This document shows positions 25 through 31,137 of a stretch of 64,000 nucleotides of DNA, piece after piece. The DNA lies in the IMG/VR virus record IMGVR_UViG_3300033182_000487, positions 1-64,000 of that record. One strand, 5' to 3'. The position numbers and the translations under genes are program-made. A model generated the notes under the pieces. That model was not told the origin of the DNA and did no database searches. It was given only the letters and a program-made list of their open reading frames with translations. Each line of letters starts with the position of its first letter. The stretch's first letter is position 1. This DNA comes from a virus.

Positions 25-1902
25 CTACAAGCCGAACAGGTCATCAAGAGAAATCGTCTGCGGCTCGGCGTCCTGTGCCTCGGCGATCTCCGTGAGGTCG
101 GACTCGACCACGGCAGCGTTCCAGCCAGCATCGCGGGTGTTCCAGTACCGCACCCGGCCCTCGGCGATGGTCAGGTACTCCTTCTCCCGCTCGATGCCGA
201 TGAAGTCATGCCCTGTCTGGGCACAGGCGATGCCTGTAGTCCCGCTGCCCATGAAGGGGTCCACCACGGGGCCGACGTCCTTGGGCACATCGTGGAGCAG
301 GCGTGCCATGACGGCGTAGGGTTTGACTGTGTTGTGGCTCATGCCCACAGCCGTCTGAAAGGTCGGTGACCCCTCCACGGAGAGATTGACCACATCCCCC
401 TCATAGGGAACACGGGACACAGCCTTGACATAGGACAAGACGAAACGCACCCCGTCGTGGACGATCTCATAGGGTCGGGAAGCCTTGCGTGATCCCGCAG
501 CGACATTCCGCGTGTTGTCCGAGTAGAGCCGAATCTGGTAGGTCTGCCGAACAGACTTGAACAAGCGATCCCCGATGCCTTTCCCCTCTACGGGCGCGTA
601 GGTGAACAGGTTGGCCTTGTACCCCACGGACGCGGCAAGCAACCGCATCTGTGATGCGAGGTCGGGCGATACGGTCTTGACCTGCAAGTAGGTACGCACC
701 TTGCCACCATCCCCAGCCATGTAGCCATCAAGGATGGCTGCACGGATGTTCTTTGGAAGGGTCCAAACAGAGGGGTGGAGGCACTTCGTCGCCGCTCCGC
801 AGCCCGCCAGTTCAACGAACCGCGACCCCGCCACCTTGTCGAAGGACATGACCTGCACGGCTTTGGTGCCCTTCTTCGGGTACACGCTTGTAGTCACCGA
901 CGAGAACACCGACTTGATCCGCCCAATCAGGTCGGTTTCCCTCTCGTGGAGGGTGAAGGACGGATACACCGCACCCCCATGCCCCGAACGCTGGGCGACT
1001 CCCTCAGCCACCCACAGGCCAAACACGAACCACCATTCGGGATCAAGGTGTTCGCTCGGAGGGGGTTCCGCCAGATCCGGGGTCATTGTGTAGTCCCCCT
1101 TCTGCATCTGATCAGCGCGGAGCCACAGGACTTGACCGCCCGTAATGGCGTTCCTCTTGCGGGTGGGGCGGTACACCAAGAAGGGGTGGTTGTCGGAAGC
1201 CAGCGTCGTGTAGTTGGTCCCCATGACCTTGATCTCAAAGAGATCGGGACTGGTGTAGGAGTGCCGAGAGACGTGCTCGACGGCATGGAACCTTCCGTCC
1301 GCTGAGTACACTTCGTCCCCCACGACGATCTCGGAGATCGGGCGGTAGCCGTGGGGCGTCATCACCAGTGCATCCGGGTGGAGACAGGGATGCACATTGC
1401 GGCGCTTCTGGACCCGGTTCAAGCCGATGTCCTGCCCGCCGGGTGCCTCGACCTCCTCGCCGTCCTCGGTCGATGCGATGGCCCCCTGTGCGCCCCCGGA
1501 CATGCCGAAGACCTTGAGGGGCAGGTGATCCAGCCCGGCCTCGCGCTCGGAGCGGGATGCCTTCGCGACGTAGTGCATCTGGTCCATCATGCTGTCGGCG
1601 ACCATGATGCAGTCGCGAACCTCAAAGCCCGTGTCCTCGGCGAAGCAGGCCCCGGTGTGTCCCGTAGGCTCGGCGACGTCGTTGGCGAGCATCAGGTGTC
1701 CGCCCGGCTTCAAGGCCCGATGGGCCTCGGTGATCTCGTCGAGGGCATCGAGAGAACTCTCCAGGACGATGCCGTGGACGCTCTCGTCCTCGTGTTGGGA
1801 CCAGTCGTAGCCCTTCGTGGCGTAGACGAACACACCCTCGACCCCCTGGGGGTCACCGGGCGTGATCATGCCACGCAGGTAGTCAATCAGTTCACTGTTC
1901 AT
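25..1902 (-). CDS. N4/N6 DNA methyltransferase-like protein with intein; catalytic DPPY motif not present
   Basis: RALKPGGH, FEVRD, YVAKAS, HP|TVKP, DPFMGSGTTGIA (SAM-binding motif I), FIGIERE. Confidence 0.85.
   Translation of the reverse strand: MNSELIDYLRGMITPGDPQGVEGVFVYATKGYDWSQHEDESVHGIVLESSLDALDEITEAHRALKPGGHLMLANDVAEPTGHTGACFAEDTGFEVRDCIMVADSMMDQMHYVAKASRSEREAGLDHLPLKVFGMSGGAQGAIASTEDGEEVEAPGGQDIGLNRVQKRRNVHPCLHPDALVMTPHGYRPISEIVVGDEVYSADGRFHAVEHVSRHSYTSPDLFEIKVMGTNYTTLASDNHPFLVYRPTRKRNAITGGQVLWLRADQMQKGDYTMTPDLAEPPPSEHLDPEWWFVFGLWVAEGVAQRSGHGGAVYPSFTLHERETDLIGRIKSVFSSVTTSVYPKKGTKAVQVMSFDKVAGSRFVELAGCGAATKCLHPSVWTLPKNIRAAILDGYMAGDGGKVRTYLQVKTVSPDLASQMRLLAASVGYKANLFTYAPVEGKGIGDRLFKSVRQTYQIRLYSDNTRNVAAGSRKASRPYEIVHDGVRFVLSYVKAVSRVPYEGDVVNLSVEGSPTFQTAVGMSHNTVKPYAVMARLLHDVPKDVGPVVDPFMGSGTTGIACAQTGHDFIGIEREKEYLTIAEGRVRYWNTRDAGWNAAVVESDLTEIAEAQDAEPQTISLDDLFGL
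331..1386 (-). mobile_element. Intein (352 aa) with LAGLIDADG homing endonuclease in the methyltransferase
   Basis: Starts CLHPDALVMT, block B SDNHPF, LAGLIDADG-like FGLWVAEG and LDGYMAGDG, ends MSHN followed by Thr; interrupts the conserved HPTVKP motif. Confidence 0.92.
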
Positions 1903-2370: not shown

Positions 2371-3846
2371 ATGCCCCGCTACCCGGCACCACAGGTCCAG
2401 TACAGGAAAGACGAGCGAGCGCGAGCGAAGCACATCGCAGCGGCTCGGCGTGACTTCCGTGCGCTGTTGAAGGCGCTGGCCCCGGACGCGGCGAAGGTCA
2501 AGGCGCTCCACAAGAAGGACGTCAACAAGCAGAAGCGAGCCCTGGTCAAGAGCCTCAAGGGGCGCGGCGACGTGCAGGCGTTCCTCGACAAGTACATGGG
2601 CACCGACACCGCGAGTCCGGTGGCGTACTCGTGGCAGAACTCGGGTCGGTACTTGCTCCGGGACGCGGCGCTCGGGATCAAGAGCCTCCGGGATGTCCTA
2701 CCTGCACTGGACAAGGTGACGAGCAACGGCTTCCAAGCCCTCACGGTCGAGGAGTTTCAGGCACCGCTGCGGTCTGTGATCCCGGCCCTGCTGCGGGAGT
2801 ACCTGCCGAAGACGGTCGAGGTCAACGTGGACGAGAACGGGACCATCCAGCGGGTCACGGACAGGTTCAACAACGAGTACAAGACCCTGGCCGTCAAGAT
2901 CGCCCACCAGAAGGCGCTCTTGAAGAAATACAACCAGATCGCCAAGCAGGTGAAGCGGGACTTGAAGTCCTCGGACGAGATCACCCGGCTCTCGGCGCTG
3001 ATCACGTCGATCCTCATGGAGACCGGCATCCGACCCGGCAAGCGGGGCAACGGCGTGGTCAAGACCGTCGGCGACAAGGAGGAGTTCATCGAGACCTTCG
3101 GAGCCGTGACCCTGGGACCGGGCCACGTCAACTTCGTGCGGGACAACTTCGTCGAGTTGAGTTTCCTGGGCAAGATGACCGGCCAGAACACAGCCACGCT
3201 GTCCGACCGGGTGATCATCAAGGCGCTCCAGGACTATGTGAACAACGCGCTCAAGTCGGGGAGCAAGTACGTCTTCGTGACCGACGATGGCTACGAGTAC
3301 ACCTACAACGACCTGTACAAGTACTTCCAGAAGCACTTCAAGGGGATTGACCCCACGGACTGGCGCAAACTCAAAGCCTCCGAGACCGTGTTCGACGCCA
3401 TCCAAGCAGAGCAGGAAGCCCTGTACAGCAGGATTCTGGCCTTCGCAGACAGCGAGGGCGATGAACTCATGGACCGGGTCACGGAAGAAATCGCACGAAC
3501 CCTGGACCTGGCCATCGCCAAAGCCCAGCAAGCCCTGTCTCACGACAACGCCACGACGACGAAGAAGCAGTACATCAACCCAGAGGTGCTGCTCCGGTTC
3601 CTGAGCACAGCGACGATGGGCGGCAAGACGTTCCGCGATGCCATCCTCGCAGGGAAGCCGACGCTGGCGTTTGACCCGCAGCGGTTCATCGAGGTCGCGA
3701 GCGCAGCAGCGGTCGCAGGCAAGAAGGCGGGCCTCCCCCACGGGGCGCGACGGGTCGCCAGCATGACTCTGGAAGACATTCTGGATGTCCTCGCCGAGGA
3801 CATCGGCCTCCCCCGCGCAGCGGGTGGCCACAGTGAAGGGAGATAG
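2371..3846 (+). CDS. DNA topoisomerase IB (poxvirus/bacterial type)
   Basis: Catalytic pentad in the expected order: GIRPG (R), FLGK (K), DWRK (R), LSH (H), KQYINP (Y). Confidence 0.85.
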   Translation: MPRYPAPQVQYRKDERARAKHIAAARRDFRALLKALAPDAAKVKALHKKDVNKQKRALVKSLKGRGDVQAFLDKYMGTDTASPVAYSWQNSGRYLLRDAALGIKSLRDVLPALDKVTSNGFQALTVEEFQAPLRSVIPALLREYLPKTVEVNVDENGTIQRVTDRFNNEYKTLAVKIAHQKALLKKYNQIAKQVKRDLKSSDEITRLSALITSILMETGIRPGKRGNGVVKTVGDKEEFIETFGAVTLGPGHVNFVRDNFVELSFLGKMTGQNTATLSDRVIIKALQDYVNNALKSGSKYVFVTDDGYEYTYNDLYKYFQKHFKGIDPTDWRKLKASETVFDAIQAEQEALYSRILAFADSEGDELMDRVTEEIARTLDLAIAKAQQALSHDNATTTKKQYINPEVLLRFLSTATMGGKTFRDAILAGKPTLAFDPQRFIEVASAAAVAGKKAGLPHGARRVASMTLEDILDVLAEDIGLPRAAGGHSEGR

Positions 3847-3848
3847 CC

Positions 3849-4112
3849 ATGGAAGTAAACCCGAAAGACCCGAAGACGTACATCCCGGTGCTGGTCGTAC
3901 TGGCCGGAGCGTTGGGAGCAGGATCACTGCTGGGCTTCACCATCGAACCCGAGGAGACGACGGCCTTGCGGGTCGAGAACGCCATGCTCAAGGAACGGAC
4001 GGCGAACCTTGAGGAGGAGACGGAGAACCTGGAGCGGCGGGTAGCGTCCCTTGAACGGATCGTCGAAGGGTGCCGTGCTGTCGTTGATGCTTGCCGAACC
4101 ACGGGGGACTGA
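3849..4112 (+). CDS. Membrane-anchored coiled-coil protein
   Basis: N-terminal hydrophobic helix followed by heptad repeats. Confidence 0.65.
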   Translation: MEVNPKDPKTYIPVLVVLAGALGAGSLLGFTIEPEETTALRVENAMLKERTANLEEETENLERRVASLERIVEGCRAVVDACRTTGD

Positions 4113-4116
4113 GATC

Positions 4117-4515
4117 ATGACCCACCAACCAACCGACCGAGAGACCAGCGTACTGGTCACCGTGATGCTGATGGCCCTCGCGATGGCAGCAGTTGAGTCC
4201 TTCTCGACCCCCGCACGGGCAGGCGATCCGCCGACGCAAGAGGAAGCGATTGAGAACCTGGAGCAGTTGCTCGTGGAGTACGACGAGGGAACGCTCAACG
4301 CGCACCACGCGCACCAAGGACCGACGGCAAACGTGGAGGCTGATGCCATCGACCCCGCGAGCCTCGTGTCCCTGCGAGCGGAGATCTCAGCACTGAGAGC
4401 AGAGAATGCGGCGCTGCGAGAGCAGAACCAAGAACTTCGACTGCTGTGTCCCTCGCCTATCGCTGTGCCTGATCCTGTGCCTGCGCCTGCGACGATGGGC
4501 CCCTGGCTGCCCTAA
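4117..4515 (+). CDS. Hypothetical exported/membrane protein with coiled coil
   Basis: Signal-like segment VLVTVMLMALAMAA; coiled coil; Pro-rich tail. Confidence 0.6.
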   Translation: MTHQPTDRETSVLVTVMLMALAMAAVESFSTPARAGDPPTQEEAIENLEQLLVEYDEGTLNAHHAHQGPTANVEADAIDPASLVSLRAEISALRAENAALREQNQELRLLCPSPIAVPDPVPAPATMGPWLP

Positions 4516-9711: not shown

Positions 9712-10911
9712 CTACAAGTCCTCGTCGGCGAACACGCCACCAGTGACGTGCGCGTCGATGAGGGACTTGGCGATCAGCCGGTTGTCCGGGTCGAGCCGGT
9801 CCAGCCACGCGCGGAAGCCCTTCTTGAGCAGACCCTTCGGCGGGGTGCCGTTGGCCAGCCACAGGAGGTCATCGCACTCGGCGAGGATCTCGCAGAGACC
9901 CCGGTGGGTGAGATCAGCCTCCAGGTCCATGTCGGCCTCGCCCTTGATGGCGAGCCGGATCGCGCCGCAGGCCGCGCCCAACTCGTCGAACAGGGCCGGA
10001 GCCTTGCTGGCGAGGTCAGCGAACTTGCCACGCAGGATCGCGCCCTCGTCCTTCCAGTCGAGGTACTCGGCCTCCACGAAGCGGCCCATGCGGTCAAGCA
10101 GGGACGCATCCATGGCACGGCTGGACATGCGACCGTCCACGTCGCCCGTCCCGCACGAGTTCGCCGTGAAGGCGAAGCGGGTGCCGGGGAACAGGGTGTG
10201 GACCCGACCCGTGGGGCCGACGAGCCGCTTGGAGGTGGTGTCCAGCATGAGCCGGAACTCCTCCAACTGCTCGGGGGTGCCCCGGTCAACGTCACTGAAA
10301 CAGATCAGCGCCGGGTAACGCTTCCCGTCGGTGCCCTCGATGCCGTGAACCAGCGCATCCCAGAGGATGCCGTAGGACCACGAGGTGCCCTGGGAGTCGA
10401 TCTCGCGGCTGTAAAACCACCGCTTGACGTCGGTCCCGCTGGTGAAGGTGTAGATCAGGCTCGGGGTGCGCGTGTCGGCGCAGTAGGCCGAGATCGCCGC
10501 GTCCTTGCCCGTGCCGCTCGGACCCCAGTAAAAGACGGGGTGCCCACGGCGCAGCGCCAGGACGACGCGACGAGCGCGCTCCAGCGCCTTGCCCGTGGAC
10601 GGCCACTGGTAGCCGTCGGGCTTGGGCAGGCACTGACCCTCCGCGATGTTGACGTTGACGGGCGCGGCAACGCCCATCATGTCATGGGAGAGGGTGGCCA
10701 GCGCAGGAGCGGGCTGGCGACGACGGCCCTTGCGCTTGTCCATGACGCCCTGGATCAGGGCGTGGGACACGGTCGCAGCACCGGGGTGCTGGGCGAGGTA
10801 GTCGGCCACCGAGAGGCCGTGGGCCTCGCGCAGGTGGTCGAGGAGGGAGTGGCTCTTGTGGCCACAGATCGCGCAGACGGCGCGGTCATCAACAAGGTGA
10901 AGTGCAGGCAT
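9712..10911 (-). CDS. CobS/MoxR-like AAA+ ATPase with N-terminal C2H2-type Zn finger
   Basis: CAIC...H...H; Walker A GPSGTGKD; Walker B variant CFSDVDR; TANS; MDASLLDRM. Confidence 0.85.
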   Translation of the reverse strand: MPALHLVDDRAVCAICGHKSHSLLDHLREAHGLSVADYLAQHPGAATVSHALIQGVMDKRKGRRRQPAPALATLSHDMMGVAAPVNVNIAEGQCLPKPDGYQWPSTGKALERARRVVLALRRGHPVFYWGPSGTGKDAAISAYCADTRTPSLIYTFTSGTDVKRWFYSREIDSQGTSWSYGILWDALVHGIEGTDGKRYPALICFSDVDRGTPEQLEEFRLMLDTTSKRLVGPTGRVHTLFPGTRFAFTANSCGTGDVDGRMSSRAMDASLLDRMGRFVEAEYLDWKDEGAILRGKFADLASKAPALFDELGAACGAIRLAIKGEADMDLEADLTHRGLCEILAECDDLLWLANGTPPKGLLKKGFRAWLDRLDPDNRLIAKSLIDAHVTGGVFADEDL

Positions 10912-18578: not shown

Positions 18579-19004
18579 ATGACAGTGAACGTGCTGCTGG
18601 ACGAGGAGTACGGCTACCGAGAGTGGCTGTGGAAGACGGGTATGACTGCCGAGCAGTTGACGGAGTGGTGGACGAGCCTCCGCTCCGTCTCGGCCTTCTT
18701 CTTCGATCCCAGCCAGGGCGGAATGCCTGGTGAGATGCTCCAGGTCATCGAGGACACCACAGACCTCAACGCCGAGGTCGCCCGAGTCCGGGCCGACGAA
18801 TCCCTCTCCACCGAGGAGCAGGACGAGGCCATCGCGAAGGCGTACCAGACGATGCCTTACAAGATGGTCATCAAGGACACCGGGGAGCCGATGCCCGACA
18901 CGAAGGGCTGGTGGCGAGGCCACCTCCACATGGACGACGACTCGTGGCTGGAGTCGTCCGAGGGCGTGATGCTGCGCCACGCGGGCTACTCCGAGGAGGA
19001 GTGA
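18579..19004 (+). CDS. Hypothetical protein
   Basis: GAGG RBS, codon bias. Confidence 0.7.
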   Translation: MTVNVLLDEEYGYREWLWKTGMTAEQLTEWWTSLRSVSAFFFDPSQGGMPGEMLQVIEDTTDLNAEVARVRADESLSTEEQDEAIAKAYQTMPYKMVIKDTGEPMPDTKGWWRGHLHMDDDSWLESSEGVMLRHAGYSEEE

Positions 19005-19011
19005 GAGCCTC

Positions 19012-19026
19012 CGGTAAAGTGCCTAT
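19012..19026 (+). promoter_or_regulatory. Class L promoter motif
   Basis: CGGTAaagtgcCTAT. Confidence 0.65.
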
Positions 19027-19062
19027 AGGATCGGGAAGGTCAAGACTTCTGGAGTGACCCCG

Positions 19063-19569
19063 ATGCCCCGCACCCTGACTGCCGCCGACCGATCTGCACT
19101 CATTCGCCTCGCGGCGACCATGGACAAGGGCTCTCCTGAGAGGAAGGCCATCCTCGCCGGACTGGAGAAGTCCGCGTCCCTTCTCATGAAGGAGTGGGAG
19201 GCCGGGCAGGAGCCGCTGTTCAAGGCGGGATCAAGCAAGGAGGAGAAGTACGTCCAGTTGTTCCGTGATCTCGCCGACAAGCGCCGCAAGACCATCCAGG
19301 TTGACCTCAAGGGCGTCATGGGCGGCAGCACCAACGGCCTCCGCGAGTTCAAGCGGGGTCGCATGGGCCGCCCGAAGCGTTGGCGTGGCGGACGGAAGGG
19401 CCCCTTTGAGCGGGTCAGCCTCTCCATCGTCCCCCTCGACGACCAGGGCAACCCCATCAAGATGCGGTCCGGCTACAAGTTGTGGCTTTCCGAGTACGAC
19501 GACGGCACGGCAGACGTGAGCGCGTCCATCGGTGACATGGCCATCATGATCAACGATATGAAGGCGTGA
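19063..19569 (+). CDS. Late protein with N-terminal tag A
   Basis: MPRTLTAADRSALIRLAATMDKGSPERKAILAGLEKSAS. Confidence 0.75.
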   Translation: MPRTLTAADRSALIRLAATMDKGSPERKAILAGLEKSASLLMKEWEAGQEPLFKAGSSKEEKYVQLFRDLADKRRKTIQVDLKGVMGGSTNGLREFKRGRMGRPKRWRGGRKGPFERVSLSIVPLDDQGNPIKMRSGYKLWLSEYDDGTADVSASIGDMAIMINDMKA

Positions 19570-19587
19570 TCGCAGCCCATCAGACCC

Positions 19588-19761
19588 ATGCCCCGTACCC
19601 TTACTGCCGCTGACCGCTCCGCACTCATTCGCCTTGCCTCGACGCTTCCTGCCGGAAGCGAGGAGCGTCAGTCCATCTTGGCTGGACTGTCGAATGCCCA
19701 TGTAAAGTCCGAAAAAACCTACACGAACGAGCGTGGGCTCAAGACTCCACGCCCGACGTAG
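19588..19761 (+). CDS. 57-aa micro-protein consisting mostly of tag A (not in ORF track)
   Basis: MPRTLTAADRSALIRLASTLPAGSEERQSILAGL...; first 17 codons identical in amino acids to 19063, with only synonymous changes. Confidence 0.6.
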   Translation: MPRTLTAADRSALIRLASTLPAGSEERQSILAGLSNAHVKSEKTYTNERGLKTPRPT

Positions 19762-20345
19762 GGACCGAAGGCTGACCTGACCCCACGACCGAACCGGGGC
19801 TGTGCCAGACCACGCATGTAGTGGACCGTCCGGGACTTCGCCTCGGTGAGTTTGTCCCACTGGTCCTCGGCGTTTTGCTTCATGCCTTCGTACTTGCTGG
19901 ACTTCTCGATGTCCAAAGAGATGCCGCCGATGGAGTATGTGTTGTGGGCGACGATGCCGTTGGCGAGGACGAAGTTCTCTGGACCCGGCACACAGAGATC
20001 GTAGGAGATGGTGAGGGGTTCACCCTGCTCAACCTCGACGGTGCATCCCCCGAGGGTTCCCTGCTGGACTTCTGCGATGGCGTCACCGGGTCGCAGGTCT
20101 TCCGCCCGAACGGGCTTGATCCCAGACCCGTGCAGATGGAACAGGGAGTGATCACAGGTGGTGGTGACCGACCGACCGTCTGGGGTCGTGCATGTGGTGG
20201 AGGGTCTGTCGCCAGTGCTGTGTTGCATCACATCTTTGATGACATGAAGGCCGACTTCTCCTGTGTCGGGGTCAACAGACCGAGTGCGGAGTTCCCCGGC
20301 GAGGAAGGCATCACGGATGGCTTGGCGGGTCTGTGCGTCGATCAT
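19719..20345 (-). CDS. C-half of a fractured gene: split-intein IntC (135 aa) + 73-aa C-extein
   Basis: Block B TTTCDHSLF, block F SYDLCVPGPENFVLANG, block G VAHN followed by Thr. Confidence 0.88.
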   Translation of the reverse strand: MIDAQTRQAIRDAFLAGELRTRSVDPDTGEVGLHVIKDVMQHSTGDRPSTTCTTPDGRSVTTTCDHSLFHLHGSGIKPVRAEDLRPGDAIAEVQQGTLGGCTVEVEQGEPLTISYDLCVPGPENFVLANGIVAHNTYSIGGISLDIEKSSKYEGMKQNAEDQWDKLTEAKSRTVHYMRGLAQPRFGRGVRSAFGPYVGRGVLSPRSFV

Positions 20346-21337
20346 GCTGCACTCCTATGGGCTTGTTCTACGGCGGCGGCGATCAAGCCCAGCGCGGTTT
20401 CGGGGTTCTCTCGGACCATGTGTCCGGGGAGTCGCAGCAGCGTCCACCCTGCTGCTTTGAGGCAGGCGTCCTTGCGCTTGTCATTTGCCAAGGTCGAGGG
20501 CACTCCAGTGTGCCCACAATCTGAACACCCATGCCAATAGCAGCCGTCGATCTCGACAGCGATTCGCAGTTCGGCGTGTGCTTCGTCCACCTCAAACGGG
20601 CCGACCTTTCCTTCGGTGGTGAATCCTGTGAATCCGGCGTTCACCATGCGGTCTTTGAATCGGAGGTGCATCTTCGATGTCTTGTTCATCGCGGCGCGTG
20701 CCTTTGCCATCGAAGTGTCCGCGATGTGGGAGCGTGCGTTTGCTGCCCCGGCAAGGGAGGCTTCTCGATTGTCTCGGTGCCACCCCCCCACCGCTTCTCT
20801 CTGCCCCCCAGACTCCCACCGGGCTTTGGTCTCCCGAGAAACAGCCTCACGGCGCTTCTGCGAGCGGTTCATTCCGACCAACCGTTCGACAAGCACTTCT
20901 CGGTAGCCTGTTTCCATGAGGCGGCGGGATGCCGCAGCGATCTGTTGGCGGGTGCGCTCCCCTTCCGGGGTCTGAAACCGAGCCTTGAGGGTTTCGGATT
21001 GCCGTGCCTTCTGGTCTTCCGTCTTGGCCTTGTTCCGCGACACCACCCCACAGAGCAGTGGTGCGTCGGGGTGTTTCTCGGAGTATTCGTTCAGGGACAG
21101 TCCCGAACACGCCCGCAAGTGCTTGGTTGTGATCTGACCCGCCCACTGACCGCACTCTCGGCACACGATGTAGTGATCCCCCTCGGACAACCCCTCGACT
21201 GCTTCCTGTGCGTACTTCGGACGGCGGGGGGTGCAGCCCTCCAGAACAGAAAGGGCACCGATCTCCGTGAGGGTCTTGATGTGCCGAGTGTTGAACCCGT
21301 ACAGAACTGAAATCTGGCGGATAGACAAGTTCATCAA
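20342..21337 (-). CDS. Free-standing Vsr/DUF559-like homing endonuclease
   Basis: FEVDEA...IAVEIDGCYWHGC...NDKRKD...GWTLLRL; Zn finger CREC..H; basic helical repeats; lower GC than flanks. Confidence 0.82.
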   Translation of the reverse strand: MMNLSIRQISVLYGFNTRHIKTLTEIGALSVLEGCTPRRPKYAQEAVEGLSEGDHYIVCRECGQWAGQITTKHLRACSGLSLNEYSEKHPDAPLLCGVVSRNKAKTEDQKARQSETLKARFQTPEGERTRQQIAAASRRLMETGYREVLVERLVGMNRSQKRREAVSRETKARWESGGQREAVGGWHRDNREASLAGAANARSHIADTSMAKARAAMNKTSKMHLRFKDRMVNAGFTGFTTEGKVGPFEVDEAHAELRIAVEIDGCYWHGCSDCGHTGVPSTLANDKRKDACLKAAGWTLLRLPGHMVRENPETALGLIAAAVEQAHRSAA

Positions 21338-22107
21338 GTCTCCGTGCAGATGGAGTGGAGTTCTTCGATGGGGAGCGTGACCTCACGCCCATCCGGCAGA
21401 TGGACGGTGACTTCGGTTTCGGGGGCGACCGAAAACTCGTTCGCGATCCAGTTGTAGACGAGCGCCTGAGCGGCGTTGACGAGTGCTCCCCACAGCAGCG
21501 CCGCCTTCCATGACGGCTTCTGGTGGCACAGCATGTCGATGGTCTTGATCTCCTCGGTCGAGGGCGGGTGCATGTTCCACTTCCAGAGGGCGATCTCCAG
21601 GTACTCGGCGAACTCCTCGTCGGTCCAGATGTAGCCGAACACCTGGTTGAAGCAGCCCACGGTGCCTTCGCCTTCGGGAGGCATGAAGCGGTAGTTGCGG
21701 TCAGGGTTGTTGTCCCTGGTCAGGAAGCGCATCTTGCGGATCAGGTCCGTCATGCAGTCGGAGTAGGGGCTGGCCTCGGTCTCGACGGCGCTGGAGACGA
21801 CGCCGAACTCCTGCACGGCCCCTTCCTCGGCGGTCGTAGCCGTCTCTCGGAAGCGCCAACGGATGCGGTAGTCGCCCGGAGCCGCGCTGGAGGGCACCTG
21901 GAGGCTGGCGTAGTACTCGCCTACCGTGGGGTTCACCGGGGTCCGGGAGGCGGACCCGATCAGCACCTCGGCGGTCGTGGTGGGGTCCACATAGTAGATG
22001 GCGTAGGAGATGCTGAAAGCGTTGGTGGGGTTCCCGTCGGCGTTGGACAGGTAGATGTCCAGGTCGCCGCGACCGAGCACCTGCCCCTGCGTGAATACGA
22101 CGGCCAT
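21334..22107 (-). CDS. N-half of a fractured gene: putative virion (neck/head-tail-like) N-extein (225 aa) + split-intein IntN (32 aa)
   Basis: Ig-like beta-rich N-terminus; ends EF|SVAPETEVTVHLPDGREVTLPIEELHSICTET (intein block A). Confidence 0.8.
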   Translation of the reverse strand: MAVVFTQGQVLGRGDLDIYLSNADGNPTNAFSISYAIYYVDPTTTAEVLIGSASRTPVNPTVGEYYASLQVPSSAAPGDYRIRWRFRETATTAEEGAVQEFGVVSSAVETEASPYSDCMTDLIRKMRFLTRDNNPDRNYRFMPPEGEGTVGCFNQVFGYIWTDEEFAEYLEIALWKWNMHPPSTEEIKTIDMLCHQKPSWKAALLWGALVNAAQALVYNWIANEFSVAPETEVTVHLPDGREVTLPIEELHSICTET

Positions 22108-22110
22108 GTG

Positions 22111-22533
22111 CTACCTCCTGTTGGTCCATGTGACGCGGTAGCCCTTGTCCCCGGTACGAGGCGAGGTCACATGCTCAATCTTGATCCGAGCACTTCCTGC
22201 CTCCTGCGCTTTCGCCAACGCCTCTCTGTAAGCCCTCATCCCAAACTCGTCTTCGGCCACCTCACCGTCGTGACCGGCTTCTTCATACAGGTAATCCTGG
22301 AGCCAGTTACGGACATCCTTCTCGGTGAGGGCGGGCCCGATCAGATCGTGGTTGTCTCTTAGGAACGCCTTTCCGTTCCTGTCCAACAGGACAGCGACGT
22401 CGAAGCCCAGATGCTCCAACACGGCTTTTGGGCTGCCCTTCCCACGACCCTTCCTATCCACGTCGATGAAATCACGGCTGGCGATGCGACCGAAGTCGTA
22501 AAGGGAGGCGACACGTCGAGAGGATGGCTGCAT
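22111..22533 (-). CDS. Hypothetical late protein
   Basis: Class L motif upstream; N-terminus MQPSSRRVASLY...RIAS. Confidence 0.7.
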   Translation of the reverse strand: MQPSSRRVASLYDFGRIASRDFIDVDRKGRGKGSPKAVLEHLGFDVAVLLDRNGKAFLRDNHDLIGPALTEKDVRNWLQDYLYEEAGHDGEVAEDEFGMRAYREALAKAQEAGSARIKIEHVTSPRTGDKGYRVTWTNRR

Positions 22534-22559
22534 GGGATTCTCCTACAGGGCTGGCTCCC

Positions 22560-22574
22560 ATAGCCTCACTACCG
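22560..22574 (-). promoter_or_regulatory. Class L promoter motif
   Basis: CGGTAgtgaggCTAT. Confidence 0.65.
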
Positions 22575-22890
22575 GAGGGCCCACCATCTCCAGAGGTCGA
22601 ACACGAGCAAAGCCCCGATGACGAGAGCCAGCAGGGACCAGATCAACCAGGCTGGAGTCTTGTCGTTCACACCCTACCGGGGCCATAGAGTTCCCACCGA
22701 CAATGGTGCCCCGCACCCCTTCTTCGGGGTGGTCGCCTGTCAGGTTCCTGCGGGGGTTTTTCGGGACGGCCCGTCTGTTGTTGTGGTTGTTGCCATGACC
22801 CCACGCAGGTGAGACGGCTCCACTGGCCAGTCTATTCCCCACCACAGGGTGTGTACGCCATGGGGGCGGCACCGCTGCACAGGAAGTCCG

Positions 22891-23301
22891 ATGCCGGAAG
22901 ACGTCTTCTCCCAACTCTTTGACTTCGGGGCTCTCGGGGTGTTCGCCGGGTTCCTGATCTGGCAGCACCTGGGGATGCAGAAGCGGTTGGACAAGATGGT
23001 CGAGCGGTTCCAGGAGCAACTCCGAGAAATCGAGGCGAAGCACGAGGAGCGCGTCGAGATCATGCGGGGCCGGTACGACGTGGTGATCGACAAGGTGCGG
23101 GCCGAAGGCCAACAGCAACTCCGGGAGTGCCTGGCCACGCGGGACGAACTGATCACCAAACTCGGCGACCAGGTCGAGGACAACGCGAAGGCGGTTGCCC
23201 AGGCGCTGATCAAGCAGGACGTGGCCCTGGCGAAACTCGACGAGGGCCTCACCGAGATGCGGCTCCAACGAGAAGTCCGCAGACGGACAGAGGACCGCTG
23301 A
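22891..23301 (+). CDS. Single-TM coiled-coil protein (holin-like)
   Basis: FGALGVFAGFLIW helix then a long coiled coil. Confidence 0.6.
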   Translation: MPEDVFSQLFDFGALGVFAGFLIWQHLGMQKRLDKMVERFQEQLREIEAKHEERVEIMRGRYDVVIDKVRAEGQQQLRECLATRDELITKLGDQVEDNAKAVAQALIKQDVALAKLDEGLTEMRLQREVRRRTEDR

Positions 23302-23726
23302 CAGCGTGACCCCACGCAACAACAACGAAGGGTGACCCCATCAAGGACATGTCCGCACGGACATGAGATCCGGTAGCCAATAAACCTCTGCCCGAAAGTC
23401 CGCGTAATACCTACGTTTTTATGGAACGAGTAAGAAAGAAGTGGTTTTTGGTGTCACTCAATCTCGATAAGCCGCTCCCGGCGGCCAGGCGGTCTTCGTG
23501 ACCCCACCATCCCACCTCTCCGGCTATCCATAGGACCATCCATACGGAAGCCCTCGTCGAGAAGCCCCGTCGGACGGTCCTTTTGAAGGTTTTCAACTTT
23601 TTTCGATTTATCTGTCCGAAAAGCGGTCCTCCTCGCCGCGTCTCGCGCGAGGGCTTCGGCAGCGTTGTTGTAAGACCGTGATCCCACGATACCTCGGCTA
23701 TGTCCGGGCACGGGTAGAGGTTTCCT

Positions 23727-25049
23727 ATGGCCCACGACGATGACGCACCGAAGACCGGCGACGACCAGGCACCGTTTGCCCTGGCTCAGAACCCTGCGCC
23801 CAACCCTCCCTCGGGGCAGGCGTACCTGACCGACAAGCAGGCGCTGACCCAGCAGATCATGGCGACCTTCCGTGCCGTGCTGCCCAGCAACTACGTCGCC
23901 CAGGTCAACGGCCCCTGGTACTCACTCCAGTTCCAGGCCATGGCCGAGCAGTTGGCCGAGATCCAGATCAGCACGACCGAGATCTACAAGGACTCCGGGT
24001 TCGACTTCACCCGGACGGATTTCTTGTGGCAGGTGCTCGGGTCGCTGGTGTTCCCCGAAGCCTCGGACCAGTCAGGCATCCCCCAGATCGACGGTGACCT
24101 GGCCTACCGCGAGTTCCTCCACAAGATGGTGCTCCTCCTGCTGGAGGGTGCGACGAAGGCCAGCATGGAAGGCGGTCTGGAAGCCCTGGACCCCAACGTG
24201 GTGGCGACCATCACCGAGCGGTATCTGGAGACACCGCCTCGTGACCCCGTGGGAGCCTGGACCATCGAGGACCAGTTCCTGATTGACATCTTCATCGAGG
24301 GTGCGACCCCCGACACCTTCCCGACCGACCCCTTCACGCTCCAGCGGAACGCGGAGTTGGTTCTCGCGGCCTTGAAGCCTGCCCACGTCTTCTACGGCTA
24401 CTCGTACCTGTTCCGGGATGCCTTCGACAAGGTGGCGGACGACACGGGGGGCATGAGCCTCGATCTGGACTCCTACTACTACGCGGACCTGCGGAAGTGG
24501 TGCCTCGGAGCCCAGCGCATCAGCGGCACCGGAGACACCCTCTCCACCCGGACCTTGTTCACCGACCCCGACGTGTCGTTTCAGAGCATCCGGGCAGGGG
24601 CCGTCCTGGAGATCGACGGCGGCACGAACGCGGGCCAGTACCGTGTCGTGAGCACACGAGCCCTCCTCTATGGGGCCGAGGCTACCGCCAGGTCGTACAC
24701 GACCTCCACGGGCCTGTCAGGCACCCTCACGGCGACCTCTGGCAACACGGTGGTGGACCCCGGACAGGACTGGGGCGCGTTCCCTGTGGACACGACCATC
24801 ACCATCGCGGACGGCCCGAACGCCGGGACGTACCGACTCGACACTGTGCTGGGCGAGACGGGTGGACCCATCGGCGTGGTCGGGGTCAGCGGCACCGAGG
24901 TCCGGCTCTCTCCGAGCACCCTCCAGGTGGCCCGGCGCATGGACGCTGTGGTGACGGGTCAGACGTACACGGTGAGCGTGGACCGCCTCGGAGTGCAGAC
25001 CCCACGGCCTGTGTCCGGCGAGGACGTCACTCTCCAGTTTCTCCTGTGA
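23727..25049 (+). CDS. Putative baseplate/tail structural protein
   Basis: LPSNY..., DFLWQVLG, YREFL, LKPAH motif typical of baseplate wedge proteins; two GxNAGxYR beta repeats. Confidence 0.65.
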   Translation: MAHDDDAPKTGDDQAPFALAQNPAPNPPSGQAYLTDKQALTQQIMATFRAVLPSNYVAQVNGPWYSLQFQAMAEQLAEIQISTTEIYKDSGFDFTRTDFLWQVLGSLVFPEASDQSGIPQIDGDLAYREFLHKMVLLLLEGATKASMEGGLEALDPNVVATITERYLETPPRDPVGAWTIEDQFLIDIFIEGATPDTFPTDPFTLQRNAELVLAALKPAHVFYGYSYLFRDAFDKVADDTGGMSLDLDSYYYADLRKWCLGAQRISGTGDTLSTRTLFTDPDVSFQSIRAGAVLEIDGGTNAGQYRVVSTRALLYGAEATARSYTTSTGLSGTLTATSGNTVVDPGQDWGAFPVDTTITIADGPNAGTYRLDTVLGETGGPIGVVGVSGTEVRLSPSTLQVARRMDAVVTGQTYTVSVDRLGVQTPRPVSGEDVTLQFLL

Positions 25050-27649: not shown

Positions 27650-28047
27650 TGTCCCTCCAGATAGATAAGCGCGGCGCGAAGCACCGAGGGGTCTTCCCCC
27701 AGCAGGCCGAGAGCGGTGTTGCACTTCCGGCAGAGGAGACCGCGAATCTCCCCTGTGGTGTGGCAGTGGTCTACGTCCAGCCTTCCATTGAGGCTGTCTT
27801 CGGACGGTCGGCGGCAGATGGCGCACGCCCCCGCCTGTGAAGCGAGGCGTTGGTGGTAGTCCTTCTTGGTCACCCCGTACCGCTCGCGGAGATGCCCCCA
27901 ACGACGGTCGCGCTTGTAGTATTCGCGCTTGTAGTCCTTACAGAAGGCTTCACGACCACCCCCTGCTTTCAGTGAGCGTCGGTAGTAGGCGGTTTCGGAG
28001 TCCTTCGATTCCCCACACTTCGTGCAGGTCTTCGTCAACCCTGGCAT
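27646..28047 (-). CDS. Endonuclease VII-type (HNH) homing endonuclease
   Basis: CAIC...LDVDHCHTTGEIRGLLCRKCNTALG; inserted between nrdA and nrdB. Confidence 0.88.
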   Translation of the reverse strand: MPGLTKTCTKCGESKDSETAYYRRSLKAGGGREAFCKDYKREYYKRDRRWGHLRERYGVTKKDYHQRLASQAGACAICRRPSEDSLNGRLDVDHCHTTGEIRGLLCRKCNTALGLLGEDPSVLRAALIYLEGQ

Positions 28048-31034
28048 GACAGACACTCCTCCTCTGCGACGTAGTCCTTGAGCGCGACCCGTTCGATCTT
28101 CGCCGACACCTTGTCAGGGTCTACCCCGGCGGTGGTGCGGAGGTAGTAGAGGCCCTTGAGGCCCTCCTTCCATGCCTTGATGTGGGTCATCAGGACGTAG
28201 TGGCGGTCACTTCCGGCGGGGAAGAACAGGTTCACCGACTGACCCTGGCAGATGAACGGCTGGCGGTCGGCAGCGTGGCCGACGACCCACCGTTGGTCGA
28301 GTTCAAAGGCGGTCTTGTAGACGTCCTTCTCCCACTCGTCGAGACAGTCGAGGTGCTGGACTGACCCTGCGTTCGTCGTGATGCTGGACCAGACGCGCTC
28401 GCGCTCCGTGGGGTCGGTGATCTTCTTCGCCAGGAGACGCTCCAACTCGGGGTTCCGCACCTGGTGTGATCCCGCACGGGTCCGGTGCGTGTAGGCGTTG
28501 GACTTCCAGGGCTCGATGGACGGGCTGATGTTCAACAGGATGCTGCTGTTGGCGTTGGGGGCCACGGCGAGCAGGTGCGAGTTGCGGCGTCCGGTCCCCT
28601 CGCCGTCCAGGTACTCACCCTTCTCGGCGGCCAGGGCCTCCGTCGCAGCCACAGCCTCGGACTGGATGTGCTGGAAGATCTGGAGGTTCACGCCCTTTGC
28701 CAGGGCCGACTCCCAGGGGAGCCTCCTCTGCTGGAGGTAGGCGTGGAAGCCCATCGCTCCCAGACCGAGGCTGCGCTCACGGGTGGCCGAGTAGACGGCC
28801 CGGTGCAGTTCGTCGGGGGCGTGGTCGATGAACACCTGGAGCACGTTGTCGAGCAGCCGGATCAGATCACGCACCATCGGGGTGTCGCGCCACTCGTCGA
28901 ACTTCGCCAGGTTGACGCTGCTGAGACAGCAGACCGCCGTGCGGTCCTCGGACGTGGGGAGGTGGATCTCGTTGCAGTTGTGGGTGACCATCCCGTTGCA
29001 CACGAAGTGATGGTCTTCCGAATCAACATTCACGCAGAACACATCGTCCGTCCCCACGGCTTCGACGGACACGACTTCGGAGACCTTGCGTGAGTTGTTC
29101 CGGTACTTCCGCTTCGGGATCTTGACCCCCTTCCTCGTGAGGAATCCGGTGGCTTCCTCAAAGGCCAACGCATCGGTCTTGTTGCCGATGACGATGCGCC
29201 ATGCGTCCTTCACCTCGTAAGGGGCATGTGACCCCTTCCCGTCAGGAAGCATGACGGTGCCTGACTTACGGTGAAGATAGAGGCTGGCGCTCATGCCGAG
29301 ATTGCGGAGAATCAGAAGGATGTCGGAGAGGAAGTCTTTGTCGATGTTGGTCAGCGACAGGTAGACGGGAGCACCCTTCCCCCCTCCCACATTCACGGTG
29401 CCATCCGCGTAGAACAAGCCTCGGATGTACTGCCATTGAGTCGCTTCATCGGATGACCAGATCCAGTCTGGCACTGAACCCTTCACGAATCCCAACCCCG
29501 ACTTGTGGAATGTGCGGCTGGAAAGGCGGACCTTCCGCACATCAGAGCAACCCGTGTTCTGGTCGCGGAACCTCGCTGGGTCGCGAGGCCGTGACCCAAC
29601 AACATCCCCGGTTCCGTTCCGAACCTCGTAGGTGTCGCACCCGTACTTGTGGTGTACGCGGTCGAACCGTTCCTGAACTTCGGGAATGAGGTCGAAATCA
29701 GGCTCCCACAGGTCGATCATGTGCATGAGGGATGCTTCATGCTGGGTTCCGTCGGCTTGGTACAAGCCGAGCAAGAACGCCTCGTCTTCCATCGAAACCT
29801 GACCGAACAACCCCTTGTTCGTCTGGACATGAACGCGGTCACCGATGACGAGATCATCACACCGGACATCCCCCCTGTCTGTCTTGACCTTGTGGTACTC
29901 CGTGACCGTGTGGGTCATGCCGTTCTTCAGCGTGATCCGAAAGACCGGAGCATCCTGCTCGACCAAGAGCATGGCCGAAGACTTCTGGGGCAGGTTGTTG
30001 TCGAACACGGTCAGATCATCACCTTGTTCGTACAGTTCCCTTGCTGTCAGCAGTCCCCGGTCGGTGACCACCCGCTGATGTCCCGCAACGCAGAGGTTCG
30101 ATCCGTTGATGCGAAGCCCCAAACGCTTCAACGTCTCGGGGAGTGCCCGGTTCGCGGCGTCGATGAAGTTGAGGTAGGGTTCGCCCGTGCGGCTGCGGAC
30201 CTCGATGATCCGCTGGAACAGGTCACGGGCAGGCATCGTGTCGCGGATGCTCCCGTCGGCGGGGTCCACGAGGTTCCATTCCTTGCCCTCGATGCACGCC
30301 TGCATGAAGTCGTCGGTGATGTTCAAGGCGTTGTGGAGATTGAGGCACTTCCGGTTGGGATCACCGCCCGTCGGGAGTCGCATCTGCAAGAACTCCAGGA
30401 TGTCGGGGTGCGAGACGTCGAGGTAGGCCGCGTAGTTGCCCTTCCGCGTCGTGCCTTGTCGGTACGCGGTCATGTCGGCATCGACGGTCTTGAGAAACGG
30501 GATCGGGCCGGGGGACTTGTCCGACACCGAACGCACGGAAGACCAGTGACCTCCGACGCCACCGCCCTTGACCGCACACCACCGGAGTTCCGCCGTGTGG
30601 GAGATCAAGCCCTCCAGGGTGTCCGGGACGTACTGCAAGAAGCAGGAGATGGGCAGCGACTTCCACTTCTCGCCGGGCACGGGAGCGTTGCTCAGGACCG
30701 GGCTGGCGAACATGAACCAGCCCTTGCTGGCGTAGTCGTAGATGCGTTGAGCGAAGCCCGTGTCACCCTCGCAGTAGGCGACGGCGGCACGGGCGAAGGC
30801 TTCCTGTGGGGACTTCTCGTCGGGGCGCATGTAGTACGCCTTGAGGAGGTCCAATGCGAACGGGCTGAGGTCTTCATCTCGGTCCAGAGAGATCTGGATG
30901 CCGTGGCAAGAGGAACGGGGCTGTGATGGGGTCAACGCCTTCTCCTGTCGATCAGTGCTAAGGAGGAGCGATCTCGGAATCTCGTGCCAGGTCGTGTTCA
31001 TTTCGCTGTCAGACAGGGGCACAAGTTCAGCCAT
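28035..31034 (-). CDS. nrdA: Ribonucleotide reductase class Ia alpha subunit with intein
   Basis: FASPVLSN, PISCF, GGGVG, GSNL|CNEI, SLGLG, APNANSS, CQGQS, KGLYYLRT, CLSCQG. Confidence 0.95.
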   Translation of the reverse strand: MAELVPLSDSEMNTTWHEIPRSLLLSTDRQEKALTPSQPRSSCHGIQISLDRDEDLSPFALDLLKAYYMRPDEKSPQEAFARAAVAYCEGDTGFAQRIYDYASKGWFMFASPVLSNAPVPGEKWKSLPISCFLQYVPDTLEGLISHTAELRWCAVKGGGVGGHWSSVRSVSDKSPGPIPFLKTVDADMTAYRQGTTRKGNYAAYLDVSHPDILEFLQMRLPTGGDPNRKCLNLHNALNITDDFMQACIEGKEWNLVDPADGSIRDTMPARDLFQRIIEVRSRTGEPYLNFIDAANRALPETLKRLGLRINGSNLCVAGHQRVVTDRGLLTARELYEQGDDLTVFDNNLPQKSSAMLLVEQDAPVFRITLKNGMTHTVTEYHKVKTDRGDVRCDDLVIGDRVHVQTNKGLFGQVSMEDEAFLLGLYQADGTQHEASLMHMIDLWEPDFDLIPEVQERFDRVHHKYGCDTYEVRNGTGDVVGSRPRDPARFRDQNTGCSDVRKVRLSSRTFHKSGLGFVKGSVPDWIWSSDEATQWQYIRGLFYADGTVNVGGGKGAPVYLSLTNIDKDFLSDILLILRNLGMSASLYLHRKSGTVMLPDGKGSHAPYEVKDAWRIVIGNKTDALAFEEATGFLTRKGVKIPKRKYRNNSRKVSEVVSVEAVGTDDVFCVNVDSEDHHFVCNGMVTHNCNEIHLPTSEDRTAVCCLSSVNLAKFDEWRDTPMVRDLIRLLDNVLQVFIDHAPDELHRAVYSATRERSLGLGAMGFHAYLQQRRLPWESALAKGVNLQIFQHIQSEAVAATEALAAEKGEYLDGEGTGRRNSHLLAVAPNANSSILLNISPSIEPWKSNAYTHRTRAGSHQVRNPELERLLAKKITDPTERERVWSSITTNAGSVQHLDCLDEWEKDVYKTAFELDQRWVVGHAADRQPFICQGQSVNLFFPAGSDRHYVLMTHIKAWKEGLKGLYYLRTTAGVDPDKVSAKIERVALKDYVAEEECLSCQG
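28977..30092 (-). mobile_element. Intein (372 aa) with LAGLIDADG endonuclease, inserted just before the NrdA catalytic Cys
   Basis: CVAGHQRV..., TEYHKV, LGLYQADG, IRGLFYADG, MVTHN|C. Confidence 0.93.
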
Positions 31035-31137
31035 CGTGGGATTCCTCAAAGATTAGTGTTTTTGCTGGCGGCAGGCGGACGAGAGCAGCCATCGAGCCTT
31101 TGATGAAGCCTCTCTGGACCCGCCTCTATAGGGCTGG

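Follow-up and report, generated by a model that had tools for sequence, protein, structure and literature searches.

Known fractured genes and related inteins

Fractured genes were described in 2009 by Dassa, London, Stoddard, Schueler-Furman and Pietrokovski, mainly from phage and metagenome DNA, with gp41 helicase, DnaE, NrdA/NrdJ, IMPDH, ligase and terminase as the host genes and with a Vsr-like or GIY-YIG endonuclease between the halves (PMC2677866). Here we describe a locus on the minus strand of IMG/VR record IMGVR_UViG_3300033182_000487, within a window of 64,000 nt (the whole stretch of DNA that was analysed), where a gene for a putative neck protein of an uncultured jumbo phage is broken in the same manner. 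Like the cases of 2009, it consists of same-strand halves carrying the parts of a split intein, with a free-standing endonuclease open reading frame (ORF) between them and with overlapping frames; both this arrangement and the type of endonuclease are already known from that work. Unlike the replication, nucleotide-metabolism and packaging enzymes of the earlier collection, the host in our case would be a neck/adaptor-like virion protein, and the intein has Ser1 and Thr+1.

While the N-terminal intein fragment (IntN) usually measures about 100 aa, 15–25 aa are cited for atypically split inteins (PMC12707363). With an IntN of 32 aa and a C-terminal fragment (IntC) of 135 aa, the intein described here is an atypically split one of the short-IntN kind. 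A known atypical split of the Ser/Ser type is PolB16 OarG, from a PolB gene of a sheep-gut metagenome, with an IntN of 15 aa, an IntC of 168 aa, Ser1/Ser+1 and two native cysteines (PMC10189870). Our intein resembles it in being natural and of class 1, with a short IntN, hydroxyl junctions, few non-catalytic cysteines and an NX histidine, but differs in its division into 32 and 135 aa, in Thr+1, in the Gln before the NX-type His and in its adaptor-like host gene. No PolB16 chain was identified among the PDB sequence matches of our intein (E ≤ 1).

Short IntN, long IntC and phage origin are shared with the phage terminase inteins (GOS-TerL and AceL-TerL; consensus Cat, 6DSL). In the alignment with 6DSL_B the two split points come to lie in one region, no more than about 10 residues apart, at a sequence similarity that is only marginal (E 0.055). 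AceL-TerL is cysteine-dependent. GOS TerL is a Ser1 intein with Cys+1 and without the NX histidine (PMC10189870). By sequence, the closest solved inteins were Mja TFIIB, PI-PkoII/PI-TkoII, Pho CDC21-1 and Pho RadA (E 1.7e-6 with the single sequence and 4.5e-14 with the profile). Mja TFIIB (5O9I/5O9J) and PI-PkoII/PI-TkoII (2CW7) have Ser1 with Ser/Thr+1 and [R]-H at the position of our His42; unlike our intein, however, these archaeal inteins are contiguous. Between blocks B and F, PI-PkoII has a LAGLIDADG domain in the same frame, whereas the endonuclease here is a separate gene placed before block B. Neither an intein in a phage adaptor/neck protein nor a description of this intein family was found in full-text literature searches.

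Organization of the fractured gene

Three ORFs follow one another on the minus strand, namely ORF1 at 21334–22107 (257 aa), a middle ORF at 20342–21337 (331 aa) and ORF3 at 19719–20345 (208 aa), with the coordinates and the stop/start overlaps that an earlier note on this DNA had given. By coordinate arithmetic each of them lies in its own reading frame, which rules out an origin from one ORF by a single nonsense or frameshift error. ORF1 is composed of the N-extein (residues 1–225, 21433–22107), which ends ...NWIANEF and is supported by homologs to E 1e-146 and by a gapless match to the uninterrupted relative P0001, of the 32-aa IntN with block A (21337–21432), which begins SVAPETEV... at Ser226 (Ser1 of the intein) and is supported by homologous tails and contiguous alleles, and of the TGA stop codon (21336–21334). 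This stop shares bases with the start of the middle ORF, which is either TTG at 21337 (TTGA) or, more likely, ATG at 21334 (TGATG). The middle ORF, of 331 aa when counted from the TTG, is taken to be the free-standing endonuclease gene on the basis of DUF559, phrog_13076 and its orthologs; its stop overlaps the ATG of ORF3 in ATGA, and GGAG stands a few bases before that ATG. ORF3 opens with the 135-aa IntC (19941–20345), which carries TTTCDH, YDLCV and VAHN and is recognized by the Intein_splicing model, by conservation and by alignments. It continues with the 73-aa C-extein (19722–19940, TYSIGGISLDIEK...), whose first codon (19938–19940) is that of Thr+1 and which aligns to residues 226–298 of P0001, and closes with its stop codon (19719–19721). 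Joining the exteins without the intein gives a protein of 298 aa with the predicted junction ...WIANEF-TYSIGG..., and the whole dissection, from Ser226 to the length of the joined product, agrees with what the earlier note had claimed. A scan of 18900–23800 returned no promoter-like sites, and terminator-like sites were at background level.

Homologs and allele states

The proposal that ORF1 and ORF3 are two pieces of one gene was borne out by uninterrupted relatives of 297–299 aa, which align over the predicted junction. P0001 (298 aa) matches the joined exteins without gaps at 286/298 identities (96%), and the sole change at the junction is Asp to Thr at +1. ORF1 searched by itself retrieved 589 relatives. 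Among the best 120 of these, 92 were uninterrupted, mostly of 296–299 aa and some of up to about 330 aa, and read straight through (N/D)EF-(D/S)YSIGG, and 26 were N-halves of about 255–281 aa that end in the same 32-residue IntN tail. Homologous halves number in the hundreds (E down to 1e-146), and the fractured-gene anatomy at the locus is confirmed as real, far beyond chance. Most of the related loci in IMG/VR (33/41) were uninterrupted; the IntN–endonuclease–IntC layout recurred in three of them (L023, L024 and L037); extein identity there is just ~54%, and the preservation of the layout at this distance excludes an assembly artefact.

A search for longer proteins recovered contiguous alleles whose mini-intein of 156–175 aa occupies this insertion site and likewise has Ser1 and Ser/Thr+1; one of them, P0125, is a close relative of the window copy. 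Further contiguous alleles carry an insert of 199–215 aa at this site or a Cys-type mini-intein at another one, and alleles of ~600 aa (P0246, P0249, P0253, P0255 and P0257) hold inteins at both sites. A second fracture site, after residue ~133, was found in other huge phages, in L048–L050 and in the 485-kb phage LR745208 (L002, 2205–4579, minus strand); in LR745208 the intein is Cys1/Cys+1 and IntN is similarly ~32 aa. The gene family therefore exists as intein-less alleles, with a contiguous mini-intein, split with an endonuclease gene, and with a second, Cys-type intein at another site. In LR745208 a different ORF separates the halves, and inspection by eye showed a PD-(D/E)xK-like motif in it.

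Catalytic residues of the intein

ORF3 matched the Pfam model Intein_splicing with an E value of 1.1e-10 (42.0 bits, above the cut-off of 35.8) and reached 43.5 bits summed in a whole-genome scan. The first residue of IntN was Ser in all 26 N-halves among the best 120 matches, the tails opening SV or SI, and Ser226 sits right after ...ANEF, where uninterrupted homologs run on into (D/S)YSIGG. In an alignment of 53 IntC halves with a mean column identity of 52%, the invariant positions included the NX-type His42, T63, D65 and H66 of block B (T63-x-x-H66), D116 of block F, and H134 and N135 of block G. As judged by the profile score, Ser1, the residues of blocks B, F and G and the +1 nucleophile, the intein is of class 1; the atypical split that the earlier note had recognized thus stands, with all class-1 catalytic positions invariant.

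Among the 120 IntC halves listed, 95 have Ser and 25 have Thr at +1, and the equivalent residue in the 92 intein-less alleles was Asp in 74, Ser in 17 and Gln in one. The constant presence of Ser/Thr+1 with the intein, against mostly Asp without it, points to selection for splicing chemistry. On these sequence grounds, the two halves are almost certainly trans-spliced into one 298-residue protein. The earlier note was right to name hydroxyl nucleophiles for the two junctions, Ser226 and Thr+1. Its further view that the combination is unusual holds in part: hydroxyl-only junctions do occur here with an atypical split, but Thr+1 is a minority state of its own family, and PolB16 OarG provides one precedent.

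His42 aligns with the 'RH' histidine of the Ser1 inteins PI-PkoII (2CW7) and Mja TFIIB (5O9I/5O9J) and with the 'KH' histidine of the PolB intein 9HTH; neither Pho CDC21 nor Pho RadA, both of them Cys1 inteins, has a His at this position. The NX motif has been reported as specific to Ser1/Ser+1(Thr+1) inteins by Pasch et al. 2023 (PMC10189870), and the alignment position of His42 fits the NX-type histidine of Ser1 inteins. It is preceded by Gln41 here and, in the family, by Q (44), R (44), K (16), E (10) or V (1). The intein contains five cysteines, all away from the junctions, one in IntN (..SICTET) and four in IntC (TTCTT, TTCDH, GGCTV and DLCVP), which places it outside the inteins that are 'cysteine-less' in the strict sense.

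The predicted endonuclease between the halves

The middle ORF scored 22.9 bits against Pfam DUF559 (cut-off 20.6). Its scores against Vsr (15.4 vs 27) and MTES_1575 (20.6 vs 38.2) were below the cut-offs, as was a match to ROS_MUCR in the zinc-finger region at residues 53–103, and in PHROGs it hit the endonuclease phrog_13076 (E 4.3e-7). The predicted protein combines an N-terminal Cys/His zinc-finger-like module with a C-terminal DUF559/Vsr-like nuclease domain (residues ~212–326). Orthologs of ~45% identity occupy the same position in L023, L024 and L037; in L023 the start codon is probably a GTG that overlaps the upstream stop codon. The four orthologs keep an N-terminal YGFN segment, the C-x2-C...H...C module, a basic helical middle and a nuclease core of the form F.TE..VG..(D)E...VE(I/V)(D/N)GCY(W/Y)H.C..C...TL..DK.K...GWT, within which the motif F.VDE...VEIDGCYWH...NDK is conserved at 45% identity. 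Vsr-like homing endonucleases have a catalytic Asp, an extra Glu, an aromatic-Trp-His triplet and an Asp (Dassa et al., PMC2677866). The core residues of our protein fit this Vsr-like catalytic set, in a comparison with the published description rather than an alignment to Vsr. The claim of a Vsr-like endonuclease between the halves can accordingly be kept as that of a free-standing Vsr/DUF559-like ORF with a motif kept in its orthologs.

A possible trace of homing was seen in a comparison with the intein-less allele of L011, which is 91% identical. The two alleles differ most in the 45 nt immediately 3' of the insertion site, where 13 nucleotide differences stand against a mean of 3.95 per bin (Poisson 2.4e-4, 0.005 after 20-bin correction), two switches between Ser codon families among them. 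Such a cluster would be expected for a homing target or a co-conversion tract, here in one allele pair only.

The zinc-finger-like module of the endonuclease (residues ~46–119) recurs in other long open frames of the phage, at G000:C1:77043-77546 (plus strand) and at 10756–10899 (minus strand) of the window. These frames may encode more free-standing endonucleases that share this DNA-binding module.

The host protein

No named family could be assigned to the extein by sequence in Pfam, in PHROGs (E up to 10), in a PDB profile search or in the ESM Atlas. The AlphaFold model of P0001 (pLDDT 70.7) consists of an N-terminal beta-sandwich resembling macroglobulin/Ig-like domains (Z 8–9.7) and a helical C-terminal half. 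Transferred to the locus, the N-extein (21433–22107, minus strand) would hold the whole Ig-like beta-sandwich (residues 1–105) and the first part of the helical adaptor domain. With the full model, Foldseek returned mostly matches to the generic Ig-like N-domain. The C-terminal domain was also modelled alone (residues 112–298, a 187-residue model; pLDDT 60, pTM 0.53), and Foldseek found nothing for it at E ≤ 0.001, only weak rows of phage connector and neck proteins.

A consistent picture emerged only from an exhaustive VIA-align search of the C-domain against 48,161 PDB representatives, which gave phage neck, adaptor or portal-tail chains at all of ranks 1–16, with Z values of 10.0–7.4 and 99–133 aligned residues spanning about 1–177 of the 187-residue model. 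These came from Pa223, KHP30, VP1, SU10, cyanophage A4, HRP29, B2, Carin 1, GP4, Moo19, T4 gp13/gp14, P-SCSP1u, the PhiM1 portal-adaptor complex, the phage 812 neck, Kp7 and DEV, and a fold search with the full-length model yielded the same kind of neck/adaptor match. The Z values are middling, and the model of the C-domain on which they rest has a pLDDT of 60. A distant homolog of 29% identity, gp319 of Tunturi_5, is annotated as a head-to-tail connector, a label that stems from automatic annotation (Phold, DRAM-v) and not from proteomics (PMC11924767). With moderate confidence, drawn from these models, the extein is regarded as a head-to-tail adaptor-like neck protein. Its modelled C-terminal fold is like that of phage adaptor/neck proteins (Pa223, KHP30, VP1, SU10, PhiM1 and T4 gp13/gp14), but unlike them it has an extra N-terminal Ig/macroglobulin-like domain and no sequence-level family match. 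The intein separates the long helix from the YSIGG hairpin, which is conserved more strongly than any other part of the protein.

The earlier note had spoken of a late virion gene. The predicted adaptor fold favours the virion part of this label, but the gene context is silent on the timing: the recognisable neighbours in the window are RNR, methylase and helicase genes, and no conserved virion-gene neighbourhood was found, the neighbours being unannotated and common only to the closest relatives, so that 'late' is neither supported nor contradicted.

In one subgroup of loci (L041, L042, L046, L049 and L051, ~4001–4270), a separate upstream ORF is a paralog of the N-terminal beta-sandwich, with 31–35% identity to residues 4–93 of the neck protein.

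Proposed mechanism and alternative explanations

We consider it about 90% probable, on the strength of these sequence comparisons, that the locus is a fractured neck gene of an uncultured jumbo phage, broken by a split class 1 intein and a free-standing Vsr/DUF559-like endonuclease gene. The three overlapping ORFs would be translated from one transcript, after which the 32-aa IntN tail would dock on the 135-aa IntC head and complete the HINT fold. Ser1 would then undergo an N-O acyl shift, probably aided by the NX-type His42 and the block B His66, and the N-extein would be passed to the hydroxyl of Thr+1 by transesterification. Cyclisation of Asn135 and an O-N shift would finally yield a single chain, ...WIANEF-TYSIGG... 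The element itself may have spread through endonuclease cutting of alleles without it.

Several observations weigh against this reading. The Vsr model of Pfam stays under its own cut-off for the middle ORF, for which no solved nuclease structure was matched by sequence search either. Gln41 precedes the NX-type His, where Arg/Lys has been called invariant (PMC10189870). IntN and IntC are both acidic (net -6 and -9), so the charge complementarity of some split inteins is absent. No second copy of the neck gene was found in the 113-kb phage record, but this record is about 25% of the genome by the CheckV estimate, and a second, intact adaptor gene could lie elsewhere.

The acidity of both fragments would also suit an intein whose halves do not splice, so that the two polypeptides join non-covalently with the intein as a mere dimerisation module, or so that the gene is dead; there is a published case of a phage gene that a homing endonuclease has divided and whose product is put together again with no splicing (PMC3045599). 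We hold this to be improbable in our case, given that the catalytic residues are invariant in 53 diverged IntC and 26 IntN, that only selection for splicing explains a +1 residue which is always Ser/Thr in intein-bearing alleles and mostly Asp in intein-less ones, and that the close contiguous alleles can give a functional adaptor solely via splicing. The endonuclease ORF could instead lie within a self-splicing intron or be bypassed by recoding, either of which would restore a cis intein. Vsr-like endonuclease genes do occur in group I introns as well (PMC2677866), and contiguous mini-intein alleles exist. Yet the intron alternative, raised at the RNA level by the earlier note, found no support at the locus: no Rfam family was matched at E ≤ 1 over 19000–23000 on both strands, the ORF overlaps both of its neighbours, so that no non-coding stretch is left to hold a ribozyme core, an ATG of its own opens IntC after GGAG, the three ORFs use three different frames, and the layout is conserved in four loci. 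Such an intron or recoding event is very improbable. For a metagenomic contig from an uncultured virus, one should also consider that two frameshifts introduced by sequencing or assembly have split what is really a contiguous intein with its endonuclease domain in frame, but this has hardly any probability left when the same split is found in 26 independent N-halves, in more than 100 independent IntC halves and in three IMG/VR contigs from other samples at 45–55% identity, and when the endonuclease gene begins with a start codon of its own that overlaps the stop of the ORF before it, here and probably (as GTG) in L023.

Split site and evolution of cis and split forms

IntC residue 19 aligns with residue 51 of Pho CDC21-1, which puts the break after about residue 32, upstream of block B, while the classical position of an endonuclease domain is between blocks B and F, as in PI-PkoII. 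The same 32 IntN residues open the contiguous mini-intein alleles, and at the split point these alleles have a variable linker of 4–15 residues or, in the large versions, an insert of 40–50 residues. The variable linker indicates that the endonuclease gene sits in a tolerant surface loop.

A maximum-likelihood tree was built from 135 IntC-equivalent sequences by a quick search that left many forks unresolved. Ser+1 and Thr+1 are mixed on it, and even the nearest relatives, at 91–96% identity, include both. The use of Thr+1 as a clade marker was rejected, as the well-supported branches force at least six Ser/Thr switches. From the aligned sequences, Thr+1 is a minority and freely exchangeable state and no special trait. 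Contiguous and split forms are likewise mixed, with at least five changes forced and 14 by parsimony, which implies either that the endonuclease gene was gained or lost many times or that alleles were shuffled by recombination. We tentatively suggest, at somewhat less than even odds, that the endonuclease gene is a parasite of the intein itself, which homes into the variable loop of endonuclease-free mini-intein alleles, turns cis- into trans-splicing each time and can be lost again. If this were true, the neck-gene family would be a record of repeated, recent births of split inteins, and among its natural alleles there would be hundreds of pairs of cis and split forms, independent of cysteine and with an IntN of peptide size.

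Implications and other elements of the phage

Cysteine-independent split inteins are 'very rare' and wanted for ligation under oxidising conditions, and a short IntN is valued for being accessible by peptide synthesis (PMC10189870, PMC12707363). The intein at our locus is one of a large natural family that combines Ser1 and Ser/Thr+1 with a 32-aa IntN and comprises more than 100 diverged IntC and matched contiguous versions. This family could serve as a panel for finding efficient variants and the residues that tune oxyester chemistry, such as the Gln, Arg, Lys or Glu before the NX histidine. For phage biology, the known fractured genes, for replication and packaging enzymes, would be joined by one for a virion structural protein that forms a ring on the portal, and virion assembly would then hinge on protein trans-splicing. 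One and the same gene can be seen here without an intein, with a cis intein, with a split one and with two.

Other inteins were noted in the same phage. The RNR large subunit gene (28035–31049, minus strand) holds a classical, contiguous intein whose LAGLIDADG domain is in frame (Pfam Ribonuc_red_lgC 2.7e-97, LAGLIDADG_3 1.8e-13 and Intein_splicing 4e-6), and together with the split neck intein it indicates that the classical and the fractured layouts coexist in one phage. An N6/N4 DNA methylase gene (25–1902, minus strand; residues 521–581) is broken by Hint_2 and LAGLIDADG_3 matches (residues ~172–442), and this insert, as far as the domain matches tell, would probably be the third intein of the window. 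Intein_splicing also matched (34–38 bits) within a 952-aa open frame at G000:C1:102678-103547 (plus strand), in the same phage record outside the window.

Around the neck gene, a 140-aa ORF (22111–22533, minus strand) lies directly upstream on the same strand, with a gap of 3 nt. No homolog of it was found in 41 related loci and no match in Pfam or PHROGs, and it therefore looks like a lineage-specific insertion. Two convergent ORFs on the plus strand (19054–19569 and 19588–19761) open with a near-identical peptide, MPRTLTAADRSALIRLA...; the second encodes only 57 aa, and it shares 43 nt with the 3' end of the C-extein gene, which is read from the other strand. A 491-aa ORF at 2371–3846 (plus strand) encodes a predicted eukaryotic-type topoisomerase I catalytic core (Pfam Topoisom_I, E 3.4e-12).

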